A stretch of 64,000 bases of DNA from Actinomycetes bacterium (GTDB taxonomy: Bacteria > Actinomycetota > Coriobacteriia > WRKU01 > WQUG01). Position 1 is the first letter of the stretch; every line of letters starts with the position of its first letter. Where the stretch lies: contig JAISUC010000012.1 in assembly GCA_031272275.1 (NCBI GenBank), forward strand, positions 2,052 through 66,051, read 5' to 3'. A program made the position numbers and the translations under genes. Under the pieces are notes generated by a model. That model ran no database searches. It saw only the letters and a program-made list of their open reading frames with translations, and had not been told where the DNA came from. This document shows positions 10,764-56,682 of this stretch, in pieces.

Positions 10764-11121
10764 CCTTGAAACCAAACCGTCGATAGGTTACAGTAGGCAG
10801 GTATCGTTGAAATCGCTTTTCGGTTTCGCCTGCGTGCCGCGGTCGAGCTGTCGCCGGACGGCGCGCGCGAACTAAGAGGGAAGCAGGTGCAAGACCTGCG
10901 CAACCCCCGTTGCCGTAAGTGGTGATGATCCGTGCAGTTTGCCACTGGGGCGCGTTGTCCCGGGAAGGCGCGCGGTATCACATGACCCACAAGCCGGAAG
11001 ACCTGCCGAAAAGCCTCGAAGTATCTGTCTTTCGGCGGGAAAGACCGGGCTGTCCTGAGGTCGATCGCAATCAGGCGCATTCCAGTTCTGACTCCGTCGC
11101 GGACGCGAAGGAGGAACACAG

Positions 11122-12714
11122 ATGCTATACAGAAAGCACAACAATCGGGGGAGTCGGATGTCGGCACCCGGGTTTGTCCTGCACGGTTTGCGGGCACCGC
11201 ACGACGGGCGTGTTCCCGTGATGCCCGTGCGGTCTGTGTGGCGCATGCGGCCCGTGCGGCGGGCCGCCGCGAAACGAGCCGCCGTGGCACGGGTCGCCGC
11301 AGCCTGCGTGCTGTTGGTGTGCGTGGTGTGCGTGGCGGGCGCGATGGGAGCCGCGCCGACATCCGCGCATGCCCGGACAGCAGCGGCCACCGAGTGGGGC
11401 GGATACCGCCGCACGGCGGCAAACAGCGGGGTCACGGCGGCAAAAACCCCGACGTCAAAATCTCGTACGAGGCTGAAATGGTCGCGCAAGCTGGTTGCCG
11501 GCGGTGGCTGGGACGTGCGCGTCTCGGCGCCCATCATCGTGCGTGGCAAGGTGTTCATCGCGCGCAACAATCAGCTGTTGCGCTATAGCAAATCCGGCAA
11601 ACTGGAGAAAACCGTCACCCTGGCGGCACCAATCGGCTATACCTGTTATCCCGGCAGCGGCGACGGCAAGCTGTTCATCCCGCTGGACGGCGGGCGCATC
11701 CAGGCCCTGAGCGCCGCCACCATGAAAAGCAGCTGGGTCAGCGTGTCCGCCAGCATCTCTGCCACCGACACCGCGCAGAGCACTGGCACGGTCACCTATC
11801 GCGCAGGCTACCTGTACAGCAGCTGGGTGCGCGGTGGTGCCACCCCGACTGCCGGCGCGGTGGTCTGCTATAAAACGTCGGCCGGCAGCAACATTGATTC
11901 CGACGGCTACAAACGCCCCGTTTGGACCCACGCCGTCGCCCTGCCGGAAGACGGCGGCACGACCGCCGCCACAACCGCCGGCTACTACAACACCGGCATC
12001 GCGCTGACCCCGAAAGCGGCGCTGTTCGCCGGCGAAGACGGCGTCCTGACCTCGGTCGCGCTGAAAACCGGCAAGGTGCTGTCGACAGTCAAACTGAAAG
12101 CGCCCGTGCGCAGCGCCGTCCTGTTCGTGTCCACCGGCATGGGCTCGACCGGCGTGGCATACGTGTCGACCGCGAACAGCACGACCAACACGGGCAAAAT
12201 CTGGCGCGTCCCGGTCACAAAAACGGGCAAACTGTCCGCCGCTCGGGCCAAATCGGCGAAACTGTCCGCAGGCCCCGGCACTACGGCGCCTGTGCGCTAC
12301 AACAACAAACTGTACGTCGTCAGCGGACAGTCGGGTTTCGCGGCGGGCACGGCCACCGGCACGGGCAAACTGGACACTTTCAACGCGACCACGCTGAAGC
12401 ACAAAAGCACCGTCGACCTGGGCGGTTTCAGCCAGTCCTCGCCGCTGCTGTCGAAAGCACAGGCCACTAAACGCAACGGCAAACGCGCCTATCTGTACGT
12501 CACGCTGAATGACACCACAGACACCATCAAAGTCATCCGCGACAGCGCCAAACAGAAAAAACCGACCGTCGCCACCTTGGCAAAACCGGGTGGCAGCTAT
12601 TCGATGGCCAGCCTGATTGCCGACAAATCGGGTACGCTGTATTACACGTCGTCGGTGACCGACCCGGCGACCTGGTCCACCGACGTCTACCTGCAGGCTC
12701 GCGCGCGCAAATAA
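11122..12714 (+). CDS. Secreted/membrane-anchored PQQ-like beta-propeller repeat protein
   Basis: GAAGGAGGAA RBS. Hydrophobic segment AAACVLLVCVVCVAGAMG. Repeated (G)DGKLF.PLDGG...AL.A.T....W type propeller blades. Gly/Thr-rich. Confidence 0.6.
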   Translation: MLYRKHNNRGSRMSAPGFVLHGLRAPHDGRVPVMPVRSVWRMRPVRRAAAKRAAVARVAAACVLLVCVVCVAGAMGAAPTSAHARTAAATEWGGYRRTAANSGVTAAKTPTSKSRTRLKWSRKLVAGGGWDVRVSAPIIVRGKVFIARNNQLLRYSKSGKLEKTVTLAAPIGYTCYPGSGDGKLFIPLDGGRIQALSAATMKSSWVSVSASISATDTAQSTGTVTYRAGYLYSSWVRGGATPTAGAVVCYKTSAGSNIDSDGYKRPVWTHAVALPEDGGTTAATTAGYYNTGIALTPKAALFAGEDGVLTSVALKTGKVLSTVKLKAPVRSAVLFVSTGMGSTGVAYVSTANSTTNTGKIWRVPVTKTGKLSAARAKSAKLSAGPGTTAPVRYNNKLYVVSGQSGFAAGTATGTGKLDTFNATTLKHKSTVDLGGFSQSSPLLSKAQATKRNGKRAYLYVTLNDTTDTIKVIRDSAKQKKPTVATLAKPGGSYSMASLIADKSGTLYYTSSVTDPATWSTDVYLQARARK

Positions 12715-12772
12715 TGCGGAAACGGACCGACAAAATGCAGGCCGCACGAAACTGACCGTCAGGAGGGGGAGT

Positions 12773-13606
12773 ATGTCCCGCACCATAGCACGAACTGCAC
12801 ACAACCGGACGCCGCAACATCGACGCCCCGAATCGTTAACGCCGACGGCGCCGACGGCGCTGCCTGTGCGACCGGCGTTAGCCGTGTTCCGGGTGCTACT
12901 GCCGGCGCTGTTGCTGCTGCTGTTAATCGGGTGCGTGATGGCGGTGTCCGGCTGCAAAAAGCGCCCGATTGTCGCCACCCCCGACTCGACCGCAGTCACG
13001 ACCGCGACGGCAGACAACGGGCTCAATACGACCGACACCGCAGGCACGGTCCCGTCGTCAACCGTCGCCACGTCGACGGTCAGCACCGCCACCGGCAGCG
13101 CCATCCGCACCGAAACCTATGGCCAAGGTGCAGGCGACGCCCCGTTAACCTGGCAGGACGCGCAACCGACCGCGACGACTCCCCCGACGACCGGCACGAC
13201 CACGGGCACGACGACCGACGGTACCCAACAAACGGTAACCCCTGCGACCTTTCAGGTCACGGTTCAGATTGACTGCAAAACGGCGTACGCGGCAGATCCC
13301 GAAGCAATCGGTGCCCAATGGCGCGCAGGCGTGATACTGGCGTCGACCAAAATCACGGTGACCCAGGGCTCGACCGTCAAAGACCTGCTGGAGGCCACCG
13401 GGCTTTCCCTGAACGCCGCAAACGGTTACGTCCGCGGGATAGCGGGACTGAACGAAAAGGACATGGGCGCGCAATCGGGCTGGGTGTTTTTTGTCAACGG
13501 CAAAGTCCCGTCGCTGGGCTACCACAGCTACGTGCTGAAAAAAGGCGACAAGGTACGCTGGCGCTATACCTGTGACGGCGGTGCGGATATCAATGCGACG
13601 CTGTAG
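12773..13606 (+). CDS. DUF4430-like surface lipoprotein (putative substrate-capture protein for the downstream ECF transporter)
   Basis: Lipobox LLLLLIGCVMAVSGC. Thr-rich linker. C-terminal DCKTAY...WVFFVNGK...GYHSYVLKKGDKVRWRY resembles DUF4430. AGGAGGGGGAG RBS. Confidence 0.6.
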   Translation: MSRTIARTAHNRTPQHRRPESLTPTAPTALPVRPALAVFRVLLPALLLLLLIGCVMAVSGCKKRPIVATPDSTAVTTATADNGLNTTDTAGTVPSSTVATSTVSTATGSAIRTETYGQGAGDAPLTWQDAQPTATTPPTTGTTTGTTTDGTQQTVTPATFQVTVQIDCKTAYAADPEAIGAQWRAGVILASTKITVTQGSTVKDLLEATGLSLNAANGYVRGIAGLNEKDMGAQSGWVFFVNGKVPSLGYHSYVLKKGDKVRWRYTCDGGADINATL

Positions 13607-13664
13607 CACCCGCGCACACATCGGCGTCTGCGCCGACGCCGCCGACGCCGCGGCAGGCGCGTAA

Positions 13665-14573
13665 TTGCCGATGCGCCGCATCGAGCTGATACACCCCGGA
13701 GTCGTCTGTGCGTGGCTGGCAGCCGTGTTGCTGCTGACCATGTGCACACTGCAACCGATGCTGCTGGTCATATCGGTTGTCGCGGCCGCCATCAGTGTTG
13801 CGCTGTGGTGCGGCGCGGCGGCACTGGGCCGCAGCCTGCGGATGCTGGTGCCGGTCGCAGGTGCGGTCATCGCGCTGAATTTCCTGTTCAACCACCGCGG
13901 CATGACCGAGCTGTTCCGGCTGTTCGCGCGTCCCTTTACGCTGCAGGCACTGACCTATGGCGCGTGCATGGCGCTGATGCTGACCGCGCTGGTGCTGTGG
14001 TTTCAGCTGTGGCAACGCGTGCTGGGCCCCGACCGATTTCTGTTCCTGTTCGGCCGCGCCGCGCCCACCACCGCGCTGTTGCTCACGTCGGTCCTGCGCT
14101 GGATACCGCTGATGCAACAACGCTGGCGCCAAATGCAGCTGGCACAGCGCGCATTGTGCCCGGATTGTGCCGTCGTAAACACCAATGCGGGCCGGTACGT
14201 CCCGCCGTCCGCCCGCCGTCCCGGGCGATTGTCGCAACTGCGCGCCATCCTGAACCGGGTGTCGGCCTTGGCGGGCTGGTCATTGGAATCATCGATGCAG
14301 GCGGCCGACAGCATGCGCGCGCGCGGCTACGGGCAGACGCGGCGTCGTGGCAGCTACCGCGCGTATCGTTTTGGGGCGGTGGACGCCTGCTGTCTGGCAC
14401 TGCTGGTGCTGTGCGTTGCGGCGGCGATTCCGGCTGTGGCGGTCAGCCTGCGCAGTCTACATTTCTATCCCGTGTTGCGCGGGGACGTACTCCCCCTGTG
14501 GATGTTGATCGGTCCTGCGTTGCTGAGTGTGTTGCCGGCGGCCATGGAAGGGGCATGCGCGTGGCGGCGGTAA
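13665..14573 (+). CDS. ecfT: ECF transporter transmembrane T component (EcfT/CbiQ family)
   Basis: Multi-pass membrane protein of typical EcfT length with a C-terminal Arg-rich coupling helix region. Confidence 0.7.
   Translation: MPMRRIELIHPGVVCAWLAAVLLLTMCTLQPMLLVISVVAAAISVALWCGAAALGRSLRMLVPVAGAVIALNFLFNHRGMTELFRLFARPFTLQALTYGACMALMLTALVLWFQLWQRVLGPDRFLFLFGRAAPTTALLLTSVLRWIPLMQQRWRQMQLAQRALCPDCAVVNTNAGRYVPPSARRPGRLSQLRAILNRVSALAGWSLESSMQAADSMRARGYGQTRRRGSYRAYRFGAVDACCLALLVLCVAAAIPAVAVSLRSLHFYPVLRGDVLPLWMLIGPALLSVLPAAMEGACAWRR
14482..14496 (+). repeat. Family 1 15-mer GGGACGTACTCCCCC inside the 3' end of ecfT, 59 bp before the ecfA start
   Basis: Read directly. Confidence 0.6.
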
Positions 14574-16264
14574 GCGCGCGGGATTTCGGTTTCGCCTATC
14601 CGGGGCAGGCCACGCCGGTGCTGGACGGCGTGAGCTTTACGGTGCCAGCCGCCGCATTCGTGGCGGTCTGCGGGCCCACGGGCTGCGGGAAATCGACGCT
14701 GCTGCGCCATATGGTGCCGGCGTTGCGGCCGGTGGGGCGGCAGTCGGGCAGTATCGAGGTCGCAGGCTCGGTCGGATTTGTCGCACAAGACCCCGAGGCT
14801 CAGATCGTCTGCGACACCGTGGTGGCGGAACTGGCGTTCGGATCGGAAAACGCGGGACTGGCGACGCCGGTGATACGGCGGCGCGTCAGCGAGGTCGCGA
14901 GCTTTTTCGGGATGGATGCGTGGCTGGAACGATCGGTGCATACGCTGTCGGGCGGGCAGAAACAGATGGTGACCCTGGCGGCGGCGCTGGCGGTTGACCC
15001 GCAGGTATTGGTGCTGGACGAGCCCACCGCGCGTCTGGACCCGATAGCGGCGCAGGCGTTCATTCAGGCGCTGGCGCGCGCCAACGGCGAGCTGGGGTGC
15101 ACGGTGCTTTGTGTCGAGCACCGTCTGGACGAGGTCTTGCCGTTGGCCGATCGGGTGCTGTATCTGCGTGACAGCGGGTGTCGCGCGTTTGCGGATGTGC
15201 AGTCCTTTGTGGGACAGCTGCGCGATGCGGACGACGCGTTTGTGCAGGCGCTGCCCGCGCCCACGCGGGTTGCCGTGGCGGTGGGTGCAGGTGTCGATGG
15301 TTACCCGCTGGACGTGCGGGCCGGGCGCGCGCTGGTGTCTGCCGCGGTGGATGCGGGACGCATTGCGGGCGACGGCGCCGGTGGCGCGCCCCCTGCAGAT
15401 GACCCGACGCCACCGGACAGCACGGCGTGTGCGATCGAAATCCGCGACCTGAGTTTTCGTTATGGCACGGAGAGCGACTGGGTGTTGCGCCGCCTGACCG
15501 GCGGCATTCGTGCGGGCAGCATCCACGCGATTGTCGGGGGCAACGGCGTGGGCAAATCGACGCTGTTCGCGCTGATTTGCGGGGATATGAAACCACAGAT
15601 GGGCCGCATACGGATCCGTGAGGGCCTGCGCCTGGCCGCGTTGGTCCAAAACCCGAAAGCGCTGTTCACGGCAGACACTTTGCGCGGGGAACTGGAAGAA
15701 AAGGTACCCGAGGAAGCACGAGGGGGGGTCTCGCGCGCAGTCCCGCAGACGCGCCTTGGCTACAAGGTGCGTCGAGGACTGTTTGAGCACGTGACCCCCC
15801 CTCGTGCTTCCGAACGCATGACTGCCGTTGAGAGTACCGGTATCGACGGTTTGGTGCGGTCGTTCGGGTTACTCCCCCTGATGGACCGTCACCCCTATGA
15901 CCTGTCAGGGGGTGAACAGCAGCTGGCGGCGCTGGTGAAGGTGCTGGCGCGCGACCCCGACATCGTGTTGCTGGACGAGCCGACCAAGGGGCTCGACGCA
16001 CAGATGAAGGCGCGGCTGGGCGGGGTGTTGCGCGAGCTGAATGCGCAGGGGCGGACCGTGGTGTTCGTGACCCACGACCTGGAGTTTGCCGCCGAATATG
16101 CGCAGGTGTGCAGTCTGTTGGCACAGGGACAGCTGGTCGCGACCGAACCGGTGGCGCGGTTTTTTGACGGCAATCGCTTTTACACGACCGCCGTCAACCG
16201 TATGACGCGCGGGATGGTTCAGGGCTGTGTGACCGTGGACGATTTGGTAGCGCGATGGTCCTGA
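14555..16264 (+). CDS. ecfA: Fused ECF transporter ATPase (EcfA-EcfA' tandem ABC domains)
   Basis: Two Walker A sites (GPTGCGKST and GGNGVGKST), two LSGG signatures, two Walker B sites. ATG at 14555 is in frame 2. The six-frame 850-aa ORF (13712-16264) is an upstream over-extension. Confidence 0.85.
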   Translation: MRVAAVSARDFGFAYPGQATPVLDGVSFTVPAAAFVAVCGPTGCGKSTLLRHMVPALRPVGRQSGSIEVAGSVGFVAQDPEAQIVCDTVVAELAFGSENAGLATPVIRRRVSEVASFFGMDAWLERSVHTLSGGQKQMVTLAAALAVDPQVLVLDEPTARLDPIAAQAFIQALARANGELGCTVLCVEHRLDEVLPLADRVLYLRDSGCRAFADVQSFVGQLRDADDAFVQALPAPTRVAVAVGAGVDGYPLDVRAGRALVSAAVDAGRIAGDGAGGAPPADDPTPPDSTACAIEIRDLSFRYGTESDWVLRRLTGGIRAGSIHAIVGGNGVGKSTLFALICGDMKPQMGRIRIREGLRLAALVQNPKALFTADTLRGELEEKVPEEARGGVSRAVPQTRLGYKVRRGLFEHVTPPRASERMTAVESTGIDGLVRSFGLLPLMDRHPYDLSGGEQQLAALVKVLARDPDIVLLDEPTKGLDAQMKARLGGVLRELNAQGRTVVFVTHDLEFAAEYAQVCSLLAQGQLVATEPVARFFDGNRFYTTAVNRMTRGMVQGCVTVDDLVARWS

Positions 16265-16914
16265 TTACCGCGTTACTTGCGGCCTGCGTTGCGGGGATGC
16301 TGCTGGTGTATCTGGAGCGCGCGCGTCCGCGACCCCGTCAGTTTATGCCGGTTGTGGTGTTGGCGGCGCTGGCGGTGGTGGGGAGAATGCTGTTTGTCGC
16401 GATTCCGAACTTTCAGCCGGCGACGGCGGTGATAATCATCTGTGGCGTGTATTTCGGCGCGTACAGCGGGGCATTATGCGGAGTATTGGTCGCGCTGGTC
16501 TCGAACCTGTTGCTGGGGCAGGGCTTGTGGACGCCCTGGCAGATGCTCGCGTGGGGCGGCGTCGGGCTGGGGGCGGGCTTGCTGTTTTGTCGCAGGTCTG
16601 ACCGGGCAGGCCGGTCAAGCGGCTCAACCGGCCGCACGCAGGGCAGCACGCAGGCGGTGTGGACGGTGTGCGTCTATGGTGTGGTCGCGTCGTTGGCGTA
16701 CGGCATGGTGATGGACACGCAGTACTTTTTCAGCTTCCTGTTGTCCGGGGGCTGGGCGGCGTACGGCACGGCGCTTGCGGCAGGAGCGCTATTCAACTTG
16801 GCGCACGCGGTATCCACCGCCGTTTTTCTGGCGCTGGCACTGAAACCCTGGGGACGTAAGATTCAGCGCCTGATCACCACGTACGACCTGTCCGGTCACT
16901 GTCGTCATCGGTGA
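16255..16914 (+). CDS. ECF transporter substrate-specific (S) component-like membrane protein
   Basis: 219-aa polytopic membrane protein overlapping the ecfA stop. Position and size fit an S component. Confidence 0.55.
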   Translation: MVLITALLAACVAGMLLVYLERARPRPRQFMPVVVLAALAVVGRMLFVAIPNFQPATAVIIICGVYFGAYSGALCGVLVALVSNLLLGQGLWTPWQMLAWGGVGLGAGLLFCRRSDRAGRSSGSTGRTQGSTQAVWTVCVYGVVASLAYGMVMDTQYFFSFLLSGGWAAYGTALAAGALFNLAHAVSTAVFLALALKPWGRKIQRLITTYDLSGHCRHR

Positions 16915-26497: not shown

Positions 26498-29400
26498 CTA
26501 ACCGACCGTAGAAGCCGTTGAAACGCTGTCCTGTTTGCGGGTGCCGGTGGCTGCCAGCATCAGCTTGATGCGGTTCAGCTGGTTGACCTCGCTGGCACCC
26601 GGATCGTAATCGATGGCGACGATACCCACCTCGGGGTGCATCCGCTGCAGTTTCCGGAACATGCCCTTGCCGGTCACGTGATTCGGCAGACAGGCGAACG
26701 GCTGCGCGCACACCACCGACGACACGCCCGATTCGATCAGCTCCAGAATCTCTGCGGTCAACAACCATCCCTCGCCGGCACGGTTGCCCAATGACACGAC
26801 CTCTTGTGCCAGCTGAATCATATGCGGAATGTTTCCCGGCTTATAGTAATCGACGCGTGCCGCCTCCATGGCTTTGATGACCGGCTTGCGATACAGCTCC
26901 AGCACCCAGCCCACGCCGCGCTTGAAATGGCGCGACTGCTTGCCGATACCCAGGTTTTCCCAGTCCCATTCGGTGGTGTAAAAGTTCTTACAGAAAAACT
27001 CCATCAAACCGGGCACAGCTACCTCGCAGCCCTCGGCCTCGATGACGTCAACCAGGTTATTGTTCGCATCCGGGTGAAACTTCACCAGTATCTCGCCGAC
27101 GATTCCCACGCGCGGTTTGCGGGCAATGTCGCGCACCTCCAGCGCATCGAAATCGGCGATCAGCTCGTCTATCAGCCCGCGATAACTCGCACGGTAACTG
27201 CCGCTCAAATAGTCTCGGCAGTTCCGGTCCCATTTCCGGTACAGCTCCATCGTGGCGCCGGGGACTGCCTCGTACGGGCGCTGGCGCAACACCACCGACT
27301 GCAACAAATCCCCCAGACAGACCGCCTGCATCACCCGATGCAGCATGCGTGCCGATATCTTGAAGCCCGGGTTTTTCTCCAAGCCCTGCACCGATACCGC
27401 CAACACCGGTACCTGTCCATAGCCGGCCTCTGCCAGGGCTTTGCGCAACAGCGACACATAGTTGGTGGCGCGACACATCCCGCCGGTCTGCGTGATGGCG
27501 ACCGAAGTGTTGTCCGGGTCGTACTGTCCCGATTCGAATGCGCGTACCAGCTGTCCCACAACCATAATCGCCGGGTAACAGGCATCATTGTGTACCGTGC
27601 GCAGCCCCACCTCGACGTCTGCCGGGCTTGCGTGTTTCAGGATCTCCAGCCGGTAGCCTCCCGCACGAAACGCCGCCTCGATCAGCGAGAACTGCACCGG
27701 CGCCATTTGCGGGGCGATAATTGTGTGCTGCGCGCGCATCTCACGGGTAAAGGGGCGGCGTTCGCGCGTATAGGGCTCGAAATCCTCGCTGCTACAGGGC
27801 AGGCGCTCTTCGGCGGCGGCAGCCAGCGAACGCAGGCGGATACGCGCCGTCCCCAAGTTCGAGACCTCGTCGATTTTCAGCGCCGTATAGACCTTTCCCT
27901 GCGCCCGCAGGATTTCTGCGACCTGGTCTGCCGTCACGGCATCCAACCCGCAACCAAAGCTGTTCAGCTGCACCAGTTCCAGGTTCGGGTATTTTCCGAT
28001 GGCATCCGCCGCCGCATACAGACGGCTGTGATACGCCCACTGATCGTGCACGCGCAAGGGCCGCTGCAGGTCCGCCTCTGCGACCAGGCAGTCCTCGCTC
28101 AGCACCGCCATCCCCATCGAACAAATCAGCTCGGGGATGCCGTGGTGGACTTCCGGATCGATATGGTACGGGCGTCCCGCCAACACGACACCGCGCCCGC
28201 CGCGCGCGGCCAGCTCGTCCAAAGCCTCGCGCCCGGCAGCCCGCACATCGGCGTGATAGCGTTCCTGTTCCTCGTATCCCGCCTGGACCGCCGCCCGCGC
28301 CTCGTCAGCCGTCACGTTCCAGTCGGCAAAGACCTCAACCAGACGCTCCGCCAGCTTATCCGGGTTCGCCAGGTTCACGAACGGTTTCAGCAAACGCACG
28401 CCCTGTTCATGCAGACTGGGCATATTCGCATCAATTACCTGCGGGTATTGCGCCACCACCGGACAGTTGTAGTGGTTGTCGGCCCCTTCCACCAGTTCGC
28501 GTTCGTAACTGACGGACGGATACCAAATGGTACGCACGCCGCGCTCGACCAGCTGCTCGATATGACCGTGCACCAGTTTCGCCGGATAGCAGATGTTTTC
28601 AGAAGCAATCGTGTTCATGCCGGCCTCGAACAGGCGATGACTGGACCTGCCCGACAGCACCACGCGAAAGCCCAGTTGCGACAACACGGTAAACCACAGC
28701 GGATAGTTCTCGTACATATTCAGTACGCGCGGCACTCCGATGTCCCCGCGCGGACAGACCTCGCCGGGTGCCTGCCGGTACGCAAACACGCGGTGATACT
28801 TGTAATAGTACAGGTTCGGCAGGTCGCTCCGGTCGCCACCCGATTCGCTCAGCCCTCGGTCGCAGCGGTTGCCGGTCACATAGCGTCCGCCGTCCGGGAA
28901 TTCGTTGATGGTGCGCTTGCAGTGGTTCGGGCACAGGCGGCAGACACTCTGGTGGCTTTTAACCGTCAGCGCCTCCAACTGTTCTTGGGGGAGCATGGTC
29001 GACACGCCGCCGGCAGCCTGTCGGTCACGCGCGATTAACGCGGCCCCGAACGCGCCCATCAGCTCGGCGATATCGGGACGCGCGACCTCGATGCCGCATA
29101 CCAGCTCGAACGCGCGCAGGACCGCGTCGTTTTTGAAGGTCCCGCCCTGCACCATAACGCGCGGACCCAACTGTTTGGGGTCACGCATCTTAATTACCTT
29201 GTACAAGGCATTGCGCACGACCGAATACGACAGTCCCGCCGCAATATCGCCCAGACCGGCGCCTTCTTTCTGGGCCTGTTTGACCGACGAGTTCATAAAC
29301 ACCGTGCAGCGCGATCCCAAATCGACCGGAGAGGCCGAGGAAACGGCGGCGCTGACGAAGTCGTCCAGGGTGACTCCCAATGATTTTGAAAAGGTCTCGA

Positions 29401-30754
29401 GAAATGATCCGCAGCCCGACGAACAGGCCTCGTTCACGCAGATGCTGTCGATGGCGCCGTCGACGATCGACAGGTATTTCATGTCCTGGCCGCCGATGTC
29501 GATAACCGCCGTCACGCCGTCATACAGCTGGTTTGCCGCGCGGAAATGCGCCATCGTTTCGACCTCGCCGGTGTCGGCGTGCAGTGCCGCGCGCAACAGG
29601 CCCTCGCCGTAACCGGTCACACAGCTGCCGGCGATGGTGGCGCGCGGGGGCAGTTGCCTGCGGATTTTCGTCACGATGCGCGCGGCGGCTTTGACTGGAT
29701 CGCCGCCGTTCGAGGTATAGGCGCTGTACAAAATCCGCAGTTGATCGTCCAGCAGGACGGCCTTCATCGTGGTCGAACCGGCGTCGATTCCCAGAAACAC
29801 CGGACCGGACGCGTATGCGATGTCCAGACGCGGTGCGGTCAAGGCGGCGTGGCGTTCCTGAAACGCGGCGTGTTCGGCGTCATCGGCAAACAGCGGACGC
29901 AGGACGGGGACTGTGCGCTGATCGGCGTCTTTCGGGCGTAGCTCGCAGGCGCGCGCCGCCAGGTCGGTCAGCGCGATTTCTGCGCCGTCCGCCAGCTGTG
30001 CCGCACCCCACGCAACCAGCAGCTGGGCGTTATCCGGCAGAATCAACCGTGTCGTTTCGCCGGGCAGGGCGCGGGCGAACGCCGCGCGCAGCTCGGACAG
30101 GAAATACAGCGGACCGCCCAGCAGCAACACCCGCCCGCCGATGGGGCGTCCGCATGCCAGTCCCGCGATAGTCTGCGTGGCTACCGCCTGAAAAATCGAT
30201 GCCGCCAGATCCTCACGCCGCGCTCCGTCGTTCAACAGCGGTTGCAAGTCCGATTTCGCAAACACCCCACAACGCGACGCGATGGGGTACAAAGTCCGGT
30301 ACCGCGCCGCCAGATCGTTCAGACCGGCGGCGTCGGTACCTAACAGCGTGGCCATTTGATCGATAAAGGCACCCGTGCCCCCGGCACAGGTCCCGTTCAT
30401 ACGTTGTTCGGGAATCGCATCCAGATAGATGATTTTGGCGTCTTCGCCCCCCAGCTCGATCACCAGGTCGGCGTCCGGATCCAGCTGTTGGACCGCGGCG
30501 GTTTCGGCAATCACTTCCTGGACAAAGCCGACGTCGATGCGCTCCGCCAAGCCCAGCCCCGCAGACCCGGTGATCGCGACACGCGCGGTCTGTCCGGGAA
30601 ACGCTGCGTCAATTTCCGCCGACAAAGCCGCGAGTTCCGCCTGAATGTCGGCGTTGTGGCGCCGATAGGCGCTGAATAACAATTGATCGGCGTCCGCGTC
30701 CAGCACGACCGCCTTTATCGTGGTTGACCCTATGTCCAGTCCCAGCCGCAGAAT
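26498..30754 (-). CDS. Giant fusion protein of 2-hydroxyacyl-CoA dehydratase-type activase (BadF/BadG/BcrA/BcrD ATPase) and dehydratase HgdB-like domains (about 1400 aa)
   Basis: Two activase ATPase modules (DIGSTTIK, GIDAGSTTMK, IDIGGQD) plus Cys-containing dehydratase-like domains. The first canonical start (GTG 30706) lies after the conserved LGLDIGSTTIK phosphate-binding motif, so initiation is probably at ATT (30754) or CTG (30751), with AAGGAG at 30765-30770. Confidence 0.75.
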   Translation of the reverse strand: MLRLGLDIGSTTIKAVVLDADADQLLFSAYRRHNADIQAELAALSAEIDAAFPGQTARVAITGSAGLGLAERIDVGFVQEVIAETAAVQQLDPDADLVIELGGEDAKIIYLDAIPEQRMNGTCAGGTGAFIDQMATLLGTDAAGLNDLAARYRTLYPIASRCGVFAKSDLQPLLNDGARREDLAASIFQAVATQTIAGLACGRPIGGRVLLLGGPLYFLSELRAAFARALPGETTRLILPDNAQLLVAWGAAQLADGAEIALTDLAARACELRPKDADQRTVPVLRPLFADDAEHAAFQERHAALTAPRLDIAYASGPVFLGIDAGSTTMKAVLLDDQLRILYSAYTSNGGDPVKAAARIVTKIRRQLPPRATIAGSCVTGYGEGLLRAALHADTGEVETMAHFRAANQLYDGVTAVIDIGGQDMKYLSIVDGAIDSICVNEACSSGCGSFLETFSKSLGVTLDDFVSAAVSSASPVDLGSRCTVFMNSSVKQAQKEGAGLGDIAAGLSYSVVRNALYKVIKMRDPKQLGPRVMVQGGTFKNDAVLRAFELVCGIEVARPDIAELMGAFGAALIARDRQAAGGVSTMLPQEQLEALTVKSHQSVCRLCPNHCKRTINEFPDGGRYVTGNRCDRGLSESGGDRSDLPNLYYYKYHRVFAYRQAPGEVCPRGDIGVPRVLNMYENYPLWFTVLSQLGFRVVLSGRSSHRLFEAGMNTIASENICYPAKLVHGHIEQLVERGVRTIWYPSVSYERELVEGADNHYNCPVVAQYPQVIDANMPSLHEQGVRLLKPFVNLANPDKLAERLVEVFADWNVTADEARAAVQAGYEEQERYHADVRAAGREALDELAARGGRGVVLAGRPYHIDPEVHHGIPELICSMGMAVLSEDCLVAEADLQRPLRVHDQWAYHSRLYAAADAIGKYPNLELVQLNSFGCGLDAVTADQVAEILRAQGKVYTALKIDEVSNLGTARIRLRSLAAAAEERLPCSSEDFEPYTRERRPFTREMRAQHTIIAPQMAPVQFSLIEAAFRAGGYRLEILKHASPADVEVGLRTVHNDACYPAIMVVGQLVRAFESGQYDPDNTSVAITQTGGMCRATNYVSLLRKALAEAGYGQVPVLAVSVQGLEKNPGFKISARMLHRVMQAVCLGDLLQSVVLRQRPYEAVPGATMELYRKWDRNCRDYLSGSYRASYRGLIDELIADFDALEVRDIARKPRVGIVGEILVKFHPDANNNLVDVIEAEGCEVAVPGLMEFFCKNFYTTEWDWENLGIGKQSRHFKRGVGWVLELYRKPVIKAMEAARVDYYKPGNIPHMIQLAQEVVSLGNRAGEGWLLTAEILELIESGVSSVVCAQPFACLPNHVTGKGMFRKLQRMHPEVGIVAIDYDPGASEVNQLNRIKLMLAATGTRKQDSVSTASTVG

Positions 30755-31070
30755 ACGCGTACACTCCTTTTGCCTTGCAACCGACGAATCGGTTTTCTTA
30801 AAACGGTTTCCTTAAATCAGTTCCCTGTGGACAACCGGGCGTCCGGGTACCACTACTCGGTAACAAACATACCTTCCTCACCGATTCTGCGTCAAACAAA
30901 AGCTATTTGTCCGATACGAACCGTGATTTGTTCAATTTGGTGGTTCATAGTGACAATTCTGTGTTGTTGCAAAAAACGGGGGGAGTCGAAGCTCTGACCC
31001 GTGTCTTACTACCCATAAGGTGAAACCGTGCGTGGGGACTTACAAAAGCGGGGAGCTGTAAGCTCATCTC

Positions 31071-31100
31071 CCTAAAAAACGAGGGAGCTCTCGCTCCCTC
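31071..31100 (-). terminator. Rho-independent terminator on the minus strand (GAGGGAGC-GAGA-GCTCCCTC plus T-tract) downstream of tRNA-Arg
   Basis: Read directly. Confidence 0.6.
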
Positions 31101-31114
31101 TGGACTCTTTCAAG

Positions 31115-31191
31115 TGGTGCGCCCAGCAGGATTCGAACCTGCGGCGTTCTGATTCGTAGTCAGACCCTCTATCCAGCTGAGGTATGGGCGC
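31115..31191 (-). tRNA. tRNA-Arg (anticodon ACG), 77 nt with encoded CCA
   Basis: The reverse complement gives a GCGCCCA acceptor stem, anticodon loop CTACGAA, T-arm GCAGGTTCGAATCCTGC. Confidence 0.9.
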
Positions 31192-31703: not shown

Positions 31704-32288
31704 ATGCGTCGAGCGAACACGATTACCGAAAGGGGCGTTGCCGTGAAAGGCTTTACCAGTGACCCAAACCGCAGAAAAACCCTCATCGCCTTGGCGTGCG
31801 GTGTGTTGGCGGCCCTCTGCGTGACGCTCTATAACGCCTCACAGGCGGCCGCCTATAACCGGGCACGCGCGCAGCTGGCTGCCGGCGCGACTGCCGGACA
31901 CGTTGACACGTCGGCCGGCACGACAGACACCGCCGGGTATGGCGACGGTGTGCAGACATCCGACTCCCCCGCAACAGATCCCATATTTGCGACGCTGGAT
32001 ACGGGCATGACCGCCGTGACCCTGTCGACCGACGCCGTGCATGCGTTGGGCGGACAGTTGGCGGCCGACATGCGGGTGACTTTGATGGGTGCGTTGGATG
32101 ACGGGCGGGTTGCGGATTTGGCGCGCGACGTGCGGGTGTTGGCGACGGACGGCGCGGGCAGCGCGGTCAGCACCGTGACTTTGGCGATTCCCGACGGGCA
32201 GGTGTCACAGATTTTGGCCGCGGCGAATGCGAACACGGTCTATTTGGTCTATCCCGGGACGTTCGACGGCGTCGAGGACGCGCAGTGA
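31704..32288 (+). CDS. cpaB: CpaB/RcpC-like Flp pilus assembly protein (short form)
   Basis: N-terminal TM anchor then a Thr/Ala-rich region and a C-terminal beta-clip/SAF-like region. First gene of the tad locus. Alternative GTG start at 31743 with GAAAGGGG RBS. Confidence 0.5.
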   Translation: MRRANTITERGVAVKGFTSDPNRRKTLIALACGVLAALCVTLYNASQAAAYNRARAQLAAGATAGHVDTSAGTTDTAGYGDGVQTSDSPATDPIFATLDTGMTAVTLSTDAVHALGGQLAADMRVTLMGALDDGRVADLARDVRVLATDGAGSAVSTVTLAIPDGQVSQILAAANANTVYLVYPGTFDGVEDAQ

Positions 32289-33592
32289 TGCCCGATCTGT
32301 TTGGGGATAGTGCCGTCGGAGCCACGCCGGGTGCCGATGAACGCTGGGATTTGGTTGTTGTCAGTTCCGACCGGCGTTTTCCGCTGGATGTGACTGCGCT
32401 GATGCGCCGGGGTGTGGTGCGTATTGCACGGACCTTTTATTCCGGGGCGGAATGTCTGCGGGCGCTGGAACTGGAGGACGCAGGTACGGCTGGTGCCGGA
32501 GGCGGGGGCGGGGTCTGCCGGGTGGTGCTGATTGACGGCATCGTGTCCGATATCGCGCCGAACAATCTGTGTGATGCCCTGCGTCGTCGATGTGCGACGG
32601 CTGCGGTGGTCATGGTTATCGAAGAGCGCGACGTCGCATCCGTCGAGCGCGCCATGCGTGCCGGTGCCGCCGCAACCATCGCGCGCCACGCCGGGCTGGA
32701 GGAACTGCACGAGGTGGTCTGCCGCGTCATCGAACGGCAGCGGGGATTCGCCGGCGGCAGTGCGGGGGTGGGTGCGCATGCGCTGCATTATGGGACTGAC
32801 GGGGTGTTTGTGCCGGTGGTGGGTTCGCGCGGCGGTGCGGGCAGGTCGACCATTGCGGCGGGGCTCGCGTTGCTGGCGGCTGAACGCGGGGTGGACGTGG
32901 CCTTGCTGGACGCCGATTTGCAGTTCGGTGACATGGGGTTTTTGTTCGGTGCACGCATGCACGCGACGCTGCTGGAACTGGATCGGGCTTTGACGTCGGG
33001 TGGCGTGTCCGCGCGCAGTTTCGGCTTGGCGGTCGACGAGCATCTGACGCTGTACATTCCCCAGACTGAACCGGAAAAAGAAGATCTGCTGACCGGGCGG
33101 ATGCAGCCGATTTGCGAGGCGCTGCGTTGCGAACACCAGCTGGTGATTGCAAATTCCTGCTCGCACTGGACGGTTGCAACCGGAGAGCTGGTCGAGGCCG
33201 CGGATCTGGCGTTGGTCGTCTGCGATCGCACGATGATCGGCATGCGTGCGACTAAGAGCCTGTTCGGGATGTTGCGGCGACTGGGGATTGCGCGCGCAAA
33301 GTTGGTGACGGTGATGAACCGTGCCGACGGCAGCCAGATGAGCACCGATGAAGCCCGCGAGCTGTTGTCGGTCGACGAACTGCAGCTGGTACGCGAGCTG
33401 ACGGGACGCGAAAAGCGTCTGCTGGACTATGCGGAGTTGCGGGAATTATTTGATCGTCCCGGTCAGTTGGCGGCCGACCTGGCGCTGCTGCTGGACGAGG
33501 TGGCATCCCGCAGCAGTCTGAATATCGCAGGCGTCGGTCTGGTTCGTCAGAGCATGCAGCAAACGCGGCACCTGTTTAGGAGGAATCGATGA
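32285..33592 (+). CDS. tadZ: TadZ/CpaE-family pilus assembly ATPase-like protein (receiver-like N-domain plus MinD/ParA-like domain)
   Basis: Deviant Walker A VVGSRGGAGRSTIAAGLA and the LDADLQFGD motif typical of CpaE/TadZ. Confidence 0.75.
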   Translation: MMPDLFGDSAVGATPGADERWDLVVVSSDRRFPLDVTALMRRGVVRIARTFYSGAECLRALELEDAGTAGAGGGGGVCRVVLIDGIVSDIAPNNLCDALRRRCATAAVVMVIEERDVASVERAMRAGAAATIARHAGLEELHEVVCRVIERQRGFAGGSAGVGAHALHYGTDGVFVPVVGSRGGAGRSTIAAGLALLAAERGVDVALLDADLQFGDMGFLFGARMHATLLELDRALTSGGVSARSFGLAVDEHLTLYIPQTEPEKEDLLTGRMQPICEALRCEHQLVIANSCSHWTVATGELVEAADLALVVCDRTMIGMRATKSLFGMLRRLGIARAKLVTVMNRADGSQMSTDEARELLSVDELQLVRELTGREKRLLDYAELRELFDRPGQLAADLALLLDEVASRSSLNIAGVGLVRQSMQQTRHLFRRNR

Positions 33593-35013
33593 CAAAACTG
33601 ATGGAACGGATTCGGCAGCAGGCGTCGCCGGTTGCCGGTGCCGGGCGAGCGGATGCAGACGGGAACGTGCGGCTGCGCGAGCAGCTGCGGATGCAGCTGT
33701 ACCGCACGCTGCCGCCGACCCGTATTGCCGAGCTGCTGGCGGAAAACCCCGTTCTGGCGCGCGGCGAAGTCGAGAGCATCCTGTCACAGCAGGTTGTGCG
33801 TATCACGGCACAGGCGGGCTGTCCGCAGTTGTCGCGCGCAGAGCGTGATGCGGCGGTTGCGGCAGTCGTCAGCGAGGTGTTGGGTCTGGGTCCCATTGAC
33901 CGACTGTTGGCGGATCCGACGATTGACGAGGTCATGGTGAACGGTCCGGACCGTGTTTTTTACGAGCGCGCAGGTAAACTGTTGCCGGCAAACGAGACCT
34001 TCAGCAGCGAGGAACAGCTGCGCGGGGTGATCGATCGCATCATCAGTCCGCTGGGACGCCGTATCGATGAACAATCCCCGATGGTAAATGGTCGCTTGGC
34101 GTCGGGCCATCGCGTAAACGCGGTCATTCCGCCGGTGTCATTGACCGGGCCGCTGCTGACCATCCGCAAATTCCGCGAGCGCATCTACAGCTTAGACGAG
34201 CTGGTCGCCGCCGGTTCGGTCGCGCCCGCGGTTGCCCAACTGTTGCGCTGGGCCGTGGCGGCGCGCAAAAACATCGCCGTCAGCGGGGGTACGGGCAGCG
34301 GCAAAACGACGCTGCTCAATGCTCTGTCGCTGGAAATCGGGGTGGATGAACGGATTGTTACCATCGAGGATTCTGCGGAACTGCGCTTTCAGGGACATCC
34401 GCACGTGTTGCGGCTGGAGGCACGCACTGCAAACCTGGAGGGCAAAGGTGCCATCACCATACGCGATTTGGTAATCAACAGTTTGCGCATGCGTCCTGAT
34501 CGCATTATCGTGGGCGAGGTGCGCGGGGCAGAGGCATTGGAAATGCTCCAGGCGATGAATACCGGACACGACGGGTCGCTGACCACGCTGCACGCCAACG
34601 AGCCGCGCGAGGTCATCACGCGTCTGGTCACCATGGTGGGCTATGGTGTCGACTTGCCGCTGTACCAGGTACAGTCCCAGATTGCCGCGGCTTTCGACCT
34701 GATTGTGCACCTATCGCGCATGGCGGACGGCACACGGCGCATCACGCATGTTGACGAGCTCTGCGCGCTGCACGCCGGGACCGACGCGCAGGGTACGGCA
34801 GTCGCGCCGGGAGGGCAGGGTATGAGTGCCGGCGCTTCCCCCTTCCACCTGAAACCGCTCTATCGCCTGCAGGCGACCGGGCGCGAAACGGATGGACGGG
34901 TGACGGCCGAACACCGACTGCAGGCAGCCCCCGCATTCATGGGCGAATTGGTGAATGCGGGGCTTGCCGACGAATGCGACGTCGCGCGCTGGATGGAGCA
35001 GCTGTCATGTTGA
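33589..35013 (+). CDS. tadA: CpaF/TadA secretion ATPase (type II/IV secretion NTPase family)
   Basis: Walker A GGTGSGKTTLLNAL, Asp box, Walker B IIVGEVRG, His box. AGGAGGAA RBS. Confidence 0.9.
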   Translation: MTKLMERIRQQASPVAGAGRADADGNVRLREQLRMQLYRTLPPTRIAELLAENPVLARGEVESILSQQVVRITAQAGCPQLSRAERDAAVAAVVSEVLGLGPIDRLLADPTIDEVMVNGPDRVFYERAGKLLPANETFSSEEQLRGVIDRIISPLGRRIDEQSPMVNGRLASGHRVNAVIPPVSLTGPLLTIRKFRERIYSLDELVAAGSVAPAVAQLLRWAVAARKNIAVSGGTGSGKTTLLNALSLEIGVDERIVTIEDSAELRFQGHPHVLRLEARTANLEGKGAITIRDLVINSLRMRPDRIIVGEVRGAEALEMLQAMNTGHDGSLTTLHANEPREVITRLVTMVGYGVDLPLYQVQSQIAAAFDLIVHLSRMADGTRRITHVDELCALHAGTDAQGTAVAPGGQGMSAGASPFHLKPLYRLQATGRETDGRVTAEHRLQAAPAFMGELVNAGLADECDVARWMEQLSC

Positions 35014-36035
35014 TAACCGCGGCACTGTGGATAGTCGCCGCTGTCGCGACGGGCGTCTGTGTGGTATGCGGGGTGGCAGCCCTGTGCGATGTAATTGACC
35101 GGCAACGCGACCATGCGGCGGCACGTCGCTCGCAGGCGCGCCTGCGCGGAAACGGCGGGGACGGTGACCCCCGCAGCTGCACCGGGCACCGCCACGCGGG
35201 TCAGCCGGCAGATTCCCCGACGGGTGTACGCGCATTTTTCGCCCGCCCGCCGCTGCGTCGCCCGGTGTTTTCGACGATGCTGGGACACACGCGCCTATGG
35301 CGCCTTTACCACCGCACCCTGACGCGCGCCGGGCTGAACGCCCATGCGGAGGCCTGGGCACAGTGGTACGTGCTGGGCGCGCTGCTCTTGCTGCTGACGG
35401 CTAGTGCCGCGTCTTCCCCGGCACTGGCGGTCATCCTGTTGGCGGCGCTTACGGTGACGCTTGCGATGCTGCTGTCCGGGGCGGTCGATCGGGCACACCA
35501 ACAGCTGCGCGAACAGCTGCCCCAGATGCTCGATGCGCTGGTGGCGGCTCTGCGCGCGGGACTGTCGTTTCCCCAAGCGATTGACACGGTCACCGCCGAC
35601 ACACAGGGACGGATGCACGAAATCCTGCAAAACCTACAGGCAGATCTTGCCGTCGGGCGCGATCTGGGTCGCGCGTTTCAGGCGGCCGCCACAGCCAGCG
35701 AACTGCGCGAGTTCACCTTTGTCGCAACCGCCGCAGCCGTCGTTTCACGCGTCGGCGGCGATGCTCCGCAGCTGTTTGAAAACTGTGCGGCATTGGTCAG
35801 GCAGGACCTCGCGCTTAACCGCTCGCTCAAGGCTCAGACCGCCCAGGGCAGGCTCTCGGTTCGCATGATCGCCATTGTGCCCGCCATCCTCATCGCCATC
35901 ATGTCCTGCGCCATGCCGGGTTACCTGGGTGTTTGGCTGCATTCAACGGTCGGCCGCGTAGCCTTTGCCTTTGCCTTGCTGCTGTTGTTGACGGGCTTTC
36001 TCTGGGTCCGCCGGGTGGTGCGCGTCGATGTCTAG
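35007..36035 (+). CDS. tadB: TadB (GspF-like inner-membrane platform protein)
   Basis: T2SSF-domain membrane protein. The start overlaps the tadA stop (ATGTTGA). Confidence 0.75.
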   Translation: MLITAALWIVAAVATGVCVVCGVAALCDVIDRQRDHAAARRSQARLRGNGGDGDPRSCTGHRHAGQPADSPTGVRAFFARPPLRRPVFSTMLGHTRLWRLYHRTLTRAGLNAHAEAWAQWYVLGALLLLLTASAASSPALAVILLAALTVTLAMLLSGAVDRAHQQLREQLPQMLDALVAALRAGLSFPQAIDTVTADTQGRMHEILQNLQADLAVGRDLGRAFQAAATASELREFTFVATAAAVVSRVGGDAPQLFENCAALVRQDLALNRSLKAQTAQGRLSVRMIAIVPAILIAIMSCAMPGYLGVWLHSTVGRVAFAFALLLLLTGFLWVRRVVRVDV

Positions 36036-36765
36036 CCTGCGCACGCTGATCATATGGGTACTGGCCGCGCTGTCGGCCGGAGTCTGTGCTGCCCTCGCCA
36101 CGTCGCAGCTGTGCGACCGCATTCAGGCGGGCATACTCGCACGCAGACAGCGTCACCACCGCTTGTTGCTGGCAGGTGGGGGAGTGATCCCCGACGACGA
36201 ATCCGTGCTCCGTCAAATCTTCGATGCTCTGCACCGTGGCTTGGATCGCAGCTTGGTGGGTCGTCGTCTGTTCGTACCCATGCGCCGGAAACGCGCGTTA
36301 CAGGCGCGTCGCGACAGCTGCGTGCGCGATCTGCCCGATATGGTCGACGTAATGCGCTTGGCCTTTGATGCCGGACTGTCTTTTGACCAGGCTTTCGATC
36401 TGTACTTGGATCGCTTTGACAACGAACTGGCGCGTTGCTTCCTCGTCGCCCGGCAATCCTGGCAGGTCGGGATGCAGTCGCGCATTCGTGCGCTGGAAGA
36501 CGTCGCGGCAGATATCGGCGAAGAATCACTCTTTCGCATGATTGCGGCTCTGCGGCAGGCGTTTGCGCTGGGGAGCGCCCTGGGGCCTGCATTCGAGACG
36601 CTCTCGTTCGAGGTGCGCAGGTATCGAAAAGCGGCGCTCGAGGAACAAATTGCAAAAACTCCGGTCAAGATTCTGGTTCCTTTGGGGGTCTGTCTGTTGC
36701 CGGCGATTTTGATCCTGATTATGGGACCGATTATGAGCCAGGCCCTGTCCGGGCTGGCGCTGTAG
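36028..36765 (+). CDS. tadC: TadC (second GspF-like platform protein)
   Basis: T2SSF-like domain membrane protein overlapping the tadB stop. Confidence 0.75.
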   Translation: MSSLRTLIIWVLAALSAGVCAALATSQLCDRIQAGILARRQRHHRLLLAGGGVIPDDESVLRQIFDALHRGLDRSLVGRRLFVPMRRKRALQARRDSCVRDLPDMVDVMRLAFDAGLSFDQAFDLYLDRFDNELARCFLVARQSWQVGMQSRIRALEDVAADIGEESLFRMIAALRQAFALGSALGPAFETLSFEVRRYRKAALEEQIAKTPVKILVPLGVCLLPAILILIMGPIMSQALSGLAL

Positions 36766-50967: not shown

Positions 50968-51276
50968 ATGCGTTTGAATCCGAAAGAAATCGAGAAGCTG
51001 ATGCTGCACAACGCCGGCGAACTGGCGAAGCAGCGCAAAGCACGCGGCCTCAAGCTCAACTACGTGGAGGCTGTTGCTCTCATCAGCTCCGAGCTCATCG
51101 AGTACGCGCGCGATGGCAAGAGCGTATCAGACCTGATGGAGCTTGGTCGCCAAATCCTGACTGTCGACGACGTCATGGACGGCGTGGGCGCCATGATTCA
51201 CGAGGTCCAGATCGAGGCTACGTTCCCCGACGGAACCAAGCTGGTCACCGTTCACAACCCGATTGCAGAGAAGTAA
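50968..51276 (+). CDS. ureA: Urease gamma subunit
   Basis: [40 protein letters not shown] is canonical UreA. Confidence 0.95.
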
Positions 51277-51342
51277 ACGGGTCCATCGTGACTATGTGTT
51301 ATCCGCACTGTGTACAGTACTCAATGAACAAGGAGGCTTGAT

Positions 51343-51705
51343 ATGATTCCTGGAGAAATCCTCACGAAAGAGGGGAACGTCGAGCTCAATGCCGGTCGCG
51401 CGACCGCAGAGATCAAGGTTTCCAACACGGGTGACCGTCCTGTCCAGGTCGGTTCGCACTATCACTTCTTTGAGGTGAACAAGCGCCTGTCCTTCGATCG
51501 CGAAGCAGCGTTCGGCAAGCGCCTCGATATCCCGTCAGGGACTTCGGTCCGTTTTGAGCCGGGCGAGACGAAGACGGTTGTTTTGACGGAACTGGGTGGA
51601 CGTCAGCGTAGCTATGGTCTGAACAATTTGACCTGCGCGCAGGCTGTTCCCGCATCCGCCGCAGCCGCTCTTCGCGTTGCTGGCGAAAAAGGCTTTTTGG
51701 GTTAA
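51343..51705 (+). CDS. ureB: Urease beta subunit
   Basis: [11 protein letters not shown]...NAGR...[13 protein letters not shown] is canonical UreB. Confidence 0.95.
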
Positions 51706-51716
51706 GGAGGACAGCA

Positions 51717-53438: not shown

Positions 53439-53448
53439 GATGTGAGGA

Positions 53449-53479
53449 CCTCCGGGTTTATTGTCTCCAAACCCGGAGG
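53449..53479 (+). terminator. Hairpin CCTCCGGGTTT-attgtctcc-AAACCCGGAGG immediately after ureC (terminator/attenuator-like, no T-tract)
   Basis: Read directly. Confidence 0.4.
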
Positions 53480-53548
53480 TCGCTTGCGGGCATTAAGGGA
53501 GGCCTGTGCACCGCGTGCACACGTAGCTTTATGGTTAGACGCACGGGT

Positions 53549-53597
53549 CCGGTCGGCGCGAGACATGATTGTTGCCGACCGGGCTCTGCTTTTTCGG
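53549..53597 (+). terminator. Terminator-like hairpin CCGGTCGGC...GCCGACCGG followed by GCTCTGCTTTTTCGG, within the amt 5' leader
   Basis: Read directly. Preceded by the 17-bp perfect palindrome TGTGCACCGCGTGCACA (53505-53521). Confidence 0.45.
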
Positions 53598-53614
53598 TAG
53601 CGCAAGAAAACAGC

Positions 53615-53629
53615 GGGGGAGTACGTCCC
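53615..53629 (-). repeat. Family 1 15-mer (reverse form) forming the loop of a hairpin with stems GCGCAAGAAAAC (53600-53611) / GTTTTCTTGCG (53633-53643), about 70 bp upstream of the amt start
   Basis: Read directly. Confidence 0.7.
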
Positions 53630-53711
53630 TGCGTTTTCTTGCGGACTGCAGCCGATACGGATGCCACTGGCGTGGCACGGTTGCAGTCGAGCATAAGAAA
53701 GGAAAGAATAC

Positions 53712-55921: not shown

Positions 55922-55923
55922 TC

Positions 55924-56643: not shown

Positions 56644-56682
56644 CAGGCTAGAAGGCGAAGTAGAGTAACGGAGGTTGTAAGT

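Follow-up and report, generated by a model that had tools for sequence, protein, structure and literature searches.

Two genes of an actinobacterial contig raise the question of where translation begins when a reading frame offers no canonical start codon ahead of its conserved N-terminus. They lie in a stretch of 64,000 nucleotides (nt) of contig JAISUC010000012.1 (assembly GCA_031272275.1, an Actinomycetes bacterium of the Coriobacteriia), which is called the window below and from whose first letter all positions are counted. The first gene encodes a large activase/dehydratase fusion protein and the second one, ureD, encodes a urease chaperone. In both genes the coding segment next to the start region is conserved, the anatomy of the start is unique among the orthologues, and the same sequence is reproduced in a second assembly. 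The reading preferred here, with a probability of about 0.6, is that both genes are intact, selected coding sequences whose canonical start was lost or uncoupled in this lineage.

Frame and product of the activase gene

The frame of the fusion gene is defined by four features.

26498–30754, minus strand: proposed coding sequence of the activase/dehydratase-related fusion, 1,418 codons if ATT 30754 is the start, recognized by its translation and its Pfam/NCBIfam domains
30812–30814, minus strand: in-frame TAA which closes the frame upstream and is also the stop codon of a 13-codon upstream open reading frame (ORF) beginning at GTG 30853
30707–30742, minus strand: G-L-D-I-G-S-T-T-I-K-A-V, the phosphate-1 motif (ASKHA) in the first activase domain, encoded ahead of the start chosen by Prodigal
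30704–30706, minus strand: GTG, at which the frame first offers a canonical start, the Joint Genome Institute (JGI)/Prodigal call (P0001, 1,402 amino acids), judged to be a false start

The frame is open from TAA 30814–30812 to the stop codon 26498–26500. Its N-terminal part reads ...QKECTR-I(ATT 30754–52)-L(CTG 30751–49)-R-L(CTG 30745–43)-G-L(CTG 30739–37)-D-I-G-S-T-T-I-K-A-V-V(GTG 30706–04), and inspection of the frame found no in-frame ATG, GTG or TTG between this TAA and the motif. An earlier note on this DNA had placed the motif upstream of the first canonical start GTG 30706, in a frame open to the TAA, and had named ATT and CTG as the only possible initiators before it; both statements are borne out by the reading of the frame, which holds ATT 30754 and CTG 30751, 30745 and 30739.

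The product carries two BcrAD_BadFG/CoA_E_activ ATPase domains (residues ~4–265 and 320–575) and a DUF2229 domain (672–890) according to Pfam and NCBIfam, followed by a long dehydratase-like C-terminal part. The GxDxGST phosphate-1 motifs are located at residues 5–11 and ~323–329, one per ASKHA ATPase domain, so that the product has the arrangement by which the family is recognized, namely two ASKHA ATPase domains with their motifs and then DUF2229. The nearest homologue comes from a Propionibacteriaceae metagenome-assembled genome (MAG) with 75% identity, and many actinobacterial relatives share 60–68% identity across 99% of the length. Judging by its sequence, the product is a member of the widespread family of acyl-CoA dehydratase activase-related fusions. 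Compared with such fusions (two BcrAD_BadFG domains and DUF2229) and with the activators HgdC (1HUX) and HadI (4EHT), the window protein shows the same domain order and motifs; the gene departs from the fusion family in its start codon alone and the protein is ordinary. To our knowledge, no function has been established for this family.

The activase must be translated from a point ahead of GTG 30706, since the GLDIGSTT phosphate-binding motif of the first ATPase domain is encoded before this codon. The motif G[LIVM]DxGS[TS]T is present in 116 of 120 homologous activase proteins, mostly 6–8 residues past the start. The four motif-negative proteins are the JGI call from the window, one protein labelled partial, one with a variant motif, and P0040. 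The last one was considered as a second case of a start after the motif and was rejected, its start being miscalled with an in-frame ATG upstream. At the level of DNA, a canonical start precedes the motif in frame at all 79 orthologous loci (species genomes of GTDB with readable upstream DNA), mostly as an ATG 3–9 codons before the motif glycine, and the window is the sole exception. The comparison with orthologues proposed by the earlier note speaks for a start upstream of GTG 30706. When the 15 codons upstream of GTG 30706 are compared with 13 orthologous loci, 6–9 of them differ synonymously only and 1–5 change the residue; on this comparison the segment bears the signature of translation under purifying selection. 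The solved activators agree with this placement: in HadI and HgdC the first motif glycine follows the N-terminus by 2–4 residues, residue 3 of HadI corresponds in the alignment to residue 3 of the product started at ATT, and the N-terminal lengths are equal. A start at GTG 30706, which has no Shine-Dalgarno (SD) sequence upstream, would remove the ATP-binding motif and is judged not to be the real one.

Candidate initiation codons of the activase gene

The following features surround the putative start.

30764–30769, minus strand: SD sequence AAGGAG, resembling GGAGGG-TGTAG-ATG of the closest orthologue (L001)
30752–30754, minus strand: ATT, the favoured initiator, 9 nt past AAGGAG and best placed, which would yield M-L-R-L-G-L-D-I-G-S
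30749–30751, minus strand: CTG, an alternative near-cognate codon with an SD spacing of 12 nt, the positional homologue of the TTG start in orthologue P0024 (L002)
30743–30745, minus strand: CTG, start assigned by the NCBI Prokaryotic Genome Annotation Pipeline (PGAP), giving MGLDIGSTT... of 1,415 amino acids (P0121 = MDR1775456.1); the SD spacing of 18 nt is poor
30762–30764, minus strand: out-of-frame GTG opening a 51-codon ORF; one skipped base (around T 30752) would give M-Y-A-Y-L-R-L-G-L-D
30866–30895, minus strand: promoter-like TTGACG-18-TATGTT, a consensus match only, which implies a 5' untranslated region of ~100 nt

The AAGGAG reported by the earlier note is present, with its position shifted by one (30769–30764 and not 30765–30770). 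Well-supported starts elsewhere in the window have GGAG-type SD sequences 4–8 nt upstream. Most likely, as far as the sequence can tell, the activase is initiated at ATT 30754, with CTG 30751 in second place and CTG 30745 as a lesser alternative; ATT 30754 is favoured because it is the best spaced of the candidates from the strong AAGGAG. Initiation at a rare codon (ATT or CTG), one of the possibilities raised in the earlier note, is the best explanation for this gene, and PGAP independently annotates a CTG start. A non-canonical start of this gene is therefore already on record through an automatic assignment, although the CTG chosen by PGAP is probably not the codon used by the ribosome. The predicted N-terminus would be MLRLGLDIGSTTIK with the ATT start and MYAY... 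with the route from GTG 30764.

The gene resembles known cases of near-cognate initiation (AUU of infC and pcnB in E. coli, and annotated CTG, ATT, ATC and ATA starts) in that conserved codons are found ahead of the first canonical start, the ATT is properly spaced from a strong SD sequence and a low output is to be expected. In E. coli, initiation at AUU, AUA, AUC and CUG reaches roughly 0.1–3% of that at AUG (bioRxiv 10.1101/063800). By this analogy the activase would be produced at a few percent or less of the output of an AUG start. The AUU start of infC is conserved across species and serves the autoregulation of initiation factor 3 (IF3), and by the same analogy the expression of the activase may be IF3-sensitive. 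In contrast to infC, the canonical start was lost in none of the orthologous activase loci (0/79) and the change in the window looks recent and lineage-specific; a conserved near-cognate start of the infC type was found neither in the 79 activase loci nor in the 17 UreD homologues (out of 19) with alignable N-termini.

No Rfam element was found in the 5' regions of the activase gene or ureD. Neither the activase leader (z = +1.6) nor the ureG-ureD junction (z = 0.0) folds more stably than shuffled sequence. A –1 frameshift from TTG 30780 into the activase frame was also considered and rejected, as sequence inspection revealed no slippery heptamer.

Further upstream on the minus strand, a tRNA-Arg(ACG) gene (31191–31115) is followed by a clean intrinsic terminator (31100–31081), and two more sequences with a GC stem and a T-run lie between this terminator and the activase promoter (region 30980–31191).

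The start of ureD

In ureD the situation is different in its details. The features needed below are as follows.

57295–58131, plus strand: frame of the ureD body, open between the stop codons of ureG and ureD, with Pfam UreD (PF01774) and a match to H. pylori UreH (3SF5, E = 4e-52)
57282–57289, plus strand: SD-like GGAAGGGG in the end of ureG; a homologous GGAAGG stands 9 nt before the ATG in L004
57300–57302, plus strand: GTG one base out of the ureD frame, 5 nt after the ureG stop, reading M-S-A-N-K-L-W-P-Q-K-stop and closed by TGA 57330–32
57304–57306, plus strand: CTG, in-frame near-cognate candidate (M-P-I-N-F-G-R-K-S-E-L), 14 nt from GGAAGGGG
57310–57312, plus strand: ATA, in-frame near-cognate candidate (M-N-F-G-R-K-S-E-L), 20 nt from the SD-like sequence
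57312–57318, plus strand: AAACTTT, where 1 nt was probably inserted (AA to AAA, TT to TTT, or C); its CUU_U is also a +1 slippery sequence of the prfB type
57370–57372, plus strand: TTG, the ureD start of both JGI and PGAP (253 amino acids; P0122 and P0170 = MDR1775485.1), judged to be truncating

The identity of the gene is clear from the Pfam UreD score of 160 bits (cut-off 27), from the urease operon context and from the alignment with H. pylori UreH, which spans UreH residues 2–261. The body frame is open from the ureG stop TAA 57292–94 and offers TTG 57370 as the first canonical codon for initiation; this TTG has no SD sequence upstream. Ahead of it the frame holds the near-cognates CTG 57304, ATA 57310, CTG 57334, CTG 57340 and ATC 57346; the statement of the earlier note that only CTG codons are available does not hold, since ATA and ATC are there as well. 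An SD sequence at functional spacing is available to ATT in the activase gene (AAGGAG and 9 nt) but not to CTG 57304 or ATA 57310 here.

The alternative N-termini were scored with a profile of 43 UreD homologues.

TTG 57370 (annotated): 289.8 bits
CTG 57334: 296.0 bits
ATA 57310: 307.4 bits
CTG 57304: 307.6 bits
GTG 57300 hybrid, slip on CUU (MSANKL...): 308.3 bits
GTG 57300 hybrid, one A removed (MSANNF...): 312.1 bits
GTG 57300 hybrid, C removed (MSANKF...): 312.3 bits

The start at TTG 57370 forfeits 18–22 bits of the UreD family signal. The added profile score means that the upstream ~20 residues (FGRKSELKLGIVAGEQRSL) belong to UreD and, consequently, that both public models are truncated. 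In comparison with UreD/UreH proteins, the window ureD is without an in-frame canonical start and its public annotations are short by ~22–24 N-terminal residues. The UreD-like stretch that the earlier note had seen ahead of TTG 57370, the first canonical in-frame start, is thereby confirmed as ~20 conserved residues worth 18 bits.

The UreD family begins with M-x-x-N-x-[FY]-[GS]-x-x-S-E-L of invariant spacing (MNTYAQESKL in H. pylori UreH), and the 17 homologues (out of 19) with alignable N-termini start with M or L, which corresponds to a called canonical codon. GTG 57300 is collinear with this family start and is the candidate nearest to GGAAGGGG and the ureG stop. Removal of one base from AAACTTT gives M-S-A-N-[K/N]-F-G-R-K-S-E-L, collinear codon for codon with the closest homologue L004 (ATG ACG TCG AAC CGC TTT TCA CAG CCG TCT GAA TTG). 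The N-terminus would read MSANK[F/L]GR by the route from GTG 57300, and MPINFGR or MNFGR with near-cognate initiation. The earlier note had described ureD as a case similar to the activase; this is correct as to the absent in-frame canonical start, but the family-collinear GTG one base out of frame had been missed. On these sequence comparisons, a genuine 1-nt insertion within codons 4–6, which would be a frameshift close to the start, accounts for the data no less well than initiation at CTG or ATA would.

Most probably ureD once started at GTG 57300, and a real insertion of 1 nt in AAACTTT would have moved this codon one base out of the body frame. Any UreD still produced would be low in amount and would arise either by initiation at CTG 57304 or ATA 57310 or by +1 slippage of tRNA-Leu on CUU_U. 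The programmed +1 frameshift of prfB (CUU UGA C) has its parallel in the CUU_U at 57315–57318, where the GTG 57300 frame must shift; inspection of the activase sequence found no equivalent. In contrast to prfB, the next 0-frame codon in ureD is UGG and not a stop, the upstream sequence is GCCAAUAAA with no SD-like stimulator ~3 nt upstream, and the feature is not conserved in UreD homologues. Slippage would be inefficient with the prfB-type stimulators absent, and by its sequence the site looks more like a mutational than a programmed frameshift. A small hairpin (GCCAA-UAAACU-UUGGC, 57306–57321, plus strand) lies across the putative shift site.

The gene closes a urease cluster, ureA-ureB-ureC-amt-ureE-ureF-ureG-ureD (50968–58131), in which an ammonium transporter gene (amt) stands between ureC and ureE. 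Family models served to recognize ureABC, ureE and ureG, whereas ureF is named after the Pfam mark of its gene call. The G+C content of the cluster is 0.57–0.58 compared with 0.61–0.65 around it, and the closest relative of UreD is from an actinomycete MAG (48% identity), followed by Oscillospiraceae, Coriobacteriales, Spirochaetaceae and Helicobacter. These sequence properties suggest that the cluster may have been acquired horizontally. An Rfam match to 5_ureB_sRNA (RF02514; 51870–52167, minus strand, 149.9 bits, E = 6e-40) lies antisense within ureC; it probably reflects coding conservation with Helicobacter ureB, for which NCBIfam PRK13985 scores 1,013 bits, slightly below its cut-off, and a real antisense sRNA is unlikely.

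Possible explanations for the absence of canonical starts

According to the preferred reading, the activase would be initiated at the near-cognate ATT 30754 (possibly CTG 30751) under the direction of the strong AAGGAG 9 nt upstream, and ureD would carry a frame-disrupting insertion behind its ancestral GTG. The initiating codons, and the production of any protein from either gene, are what we infer from the sequence. As no orthologue shares either feature, they represent recent lineage-specific events and not a conserved regulatory device. Several points weigh against this reading. The N-termini of both proteins are predictions from the sequence, and a change so recent that its non-canonical start occurs in no orthologue could just as well signify that function was lost very recently. 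Competition with ATT could come from the out-of-frame GTG 30764, which has a weak AAGG 8 nt in front of it. In ureD the advantage of the frameshift hybrid over CTG 57304 is modest (4.7 bits), and UGG after CUU is no known frameshift stimulator. Finally, initiation sites mapped by Ribo-RET in M. tuberculosis are enriched in ATG, GTG and TTG and not in CTG, ATT or ATC (PMC9094748), from which it follows that near-cognate starts are rare in Actinomycetota.

The strongest competitor, still considerably less probable, is that both anomalies are start-proximal +1 frameshifts, with a start at GTG 30764 or GTG 57300 followed by +1 slippage or by a 1-nt insertion of the same type after an ancestral GTG. 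Each gene has indeed a GTG in the skip-one-base frame 4–5 codons upstream of the conserved segment, a comparable out-of-frame start occurring at merely 7 of the 79 orthologous activase loci, and in both genes a short homopolymer (TT, or AAA/TTT) is found at the junction. For ureD the prfB-type CUU_U and the better family collinearity fit well, although CUU is followed by neither a stop nor a rare codon and lacks the SD-like stimulator. For the activase the fit is poorer: GTG 30764 abuts AAGGAG with zero spacing, which leaves it the weak AAGG, while the strong SD sequence is placed for ATT. No plausible slippery site joins the two frames, and inspection of GUG-UAC-GCG-UAU-UCU shows no re-pairing of a P-site tRNA in the +1 frame. 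Such a frameshift is, moreover, conserved in no orthologue of either gene.

It is unlikely that both genes are very recent pseudogenes, which have lost the start and the functional protein while their bodies have no further lesions yet. The confinement of the loss to this lineage and the Ribo-RET result would be compatible with this, and two start defects in ~45 genes might stem from a relaxation of selection in an uncultured organism living with a host. On the other hand, 1,418 and ~275 codons are wholly open with all motifs intact, the rest of the urease cluster, seven genes (ureA, ureB, ureC, amt, ureE, ureF and ureG), is intact, and the strong SD sequence is correctly spaced for ATT. A very recent event would still be compatible with these observations.

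Still less probable is that non-canonical initiation, or +1 recoding near the start, is unusually frequent in the lineage, being tolerated or put to use there. Two cases in ~45 genes (64 kb) compare with ~0.02 expected if ~0.05% of starts are non-canonical, as annotated in model genomes (bioRxiv 10.1101/063800). Among ~30 other genes of the window that could be compared with full-length family models (~15 ORFs without family matches lay outside this survey), no start anomaly was found and all starts look canonical. If the high rate were true, it could stem from a relaxed start discrimination, e.g. an altered IF3 or initiator tRNA, or alternatively from a deliberately low expression of an activase with a high ATP demand and of a urease chaperone needed in sub-stoichiometric amounts.

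Sequencing errors were among the possibilities named in the earlier note. A canonical start concealed by an error of sequencing or assembly, namely by a miscalled base at 30752 in the one gene and by 1 nt wrongly inserted at 57312–57318 in the other, would be conceivable for a single MAG contig with homopolymers at both sites, but the data speak against it. The Logan assembly of run SRR14710912 contains a contig of 45,225 bp (SRR14710912_141346), found through P0170 and the neighbouring ORF 31704–32288, which is 100% identical over both start regions. Because this independent assembly is identical and every large ORF of the window is intact, an assembler error is very unlikely as the cause of both anomalies; we estimate the chance that random errors would hit the first five codons of two genes at ~1e-4. 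Equally improbable is that the annotated GTG 30706 and TTG 57370 are real starts of shortened proteins: Prodigal picked both and PGAP picked the latter, but the activase would lose a phosphate-1 motif found in nearly all homologues and maintained by synonymous-only change, UreD would lose ~22 conserved residues, and neither codon is preceded by an SD sequence.

Readthrough or reassignment of a stop codon was rejected as well: TAA is an ordinary stop in the window (9 of 39 genes), the ORFs are intact with TAA as stop and the sequence shows no obvious signal for readthrough. Each of the two anomalous genes does share its frame with an ORF that ends at a single TAA upstream of it, namely the short ORF from GTG 30853 (30812–30853, minus strand) and ureG (TAA 57292–57294, plus strand), which is probably a coincidence.

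Consequences for annotation

Near-cognate starts and start-proximal frameshifts are already known phenomena, and the value of the present analysis is in the correction of three gene models. The JGI model of the activase is without its ATP-binding motif and both public UreD models are without ~22 conserved residues, so that structure prediction or expression cloning from the public models would lead to defective proteins. If expressed, the two genes would be natural examples from Actinomycetota of near-cognate initiation, or of a frameshift tolerated just after the start. The occurrence of two cases so close to each other hints at relaxed selection or at relaxed start-codon discrimination in the lineage.

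Other features of the window

A cobalamin riboswitch (10804–11024, plus strand, 115 bits) precedes a cluster (11092–16914) consisting of an ORF of unknown function (11092–12714), a DUF4430 protein, a double ECF-type ABC ATPase (13607–16264) and an ECF S component, which is probably an operon for the uptake of B12 or cobalt. The segment 1–8000 has a lower GC content (0.55) and adjoins tRNA-Ser(GCT) at 1834–1926. Its ORFs encode a protein with an ADP-ribosyltransferase-exoenzyme domain and a phage VG15-like stretch (2801–3883, minus strand), a DUF2779 protein (5007–6620, minus strand) and a DIP1984-family protein, and the segment may be the remnant of a mobile element. A Tad/Flp-pilus-like set (32285–36765, plus strand) comprises a CpaE/Ssd-like ATPase, a TadA-family ATPase and at least one T2SSF-domain protein.

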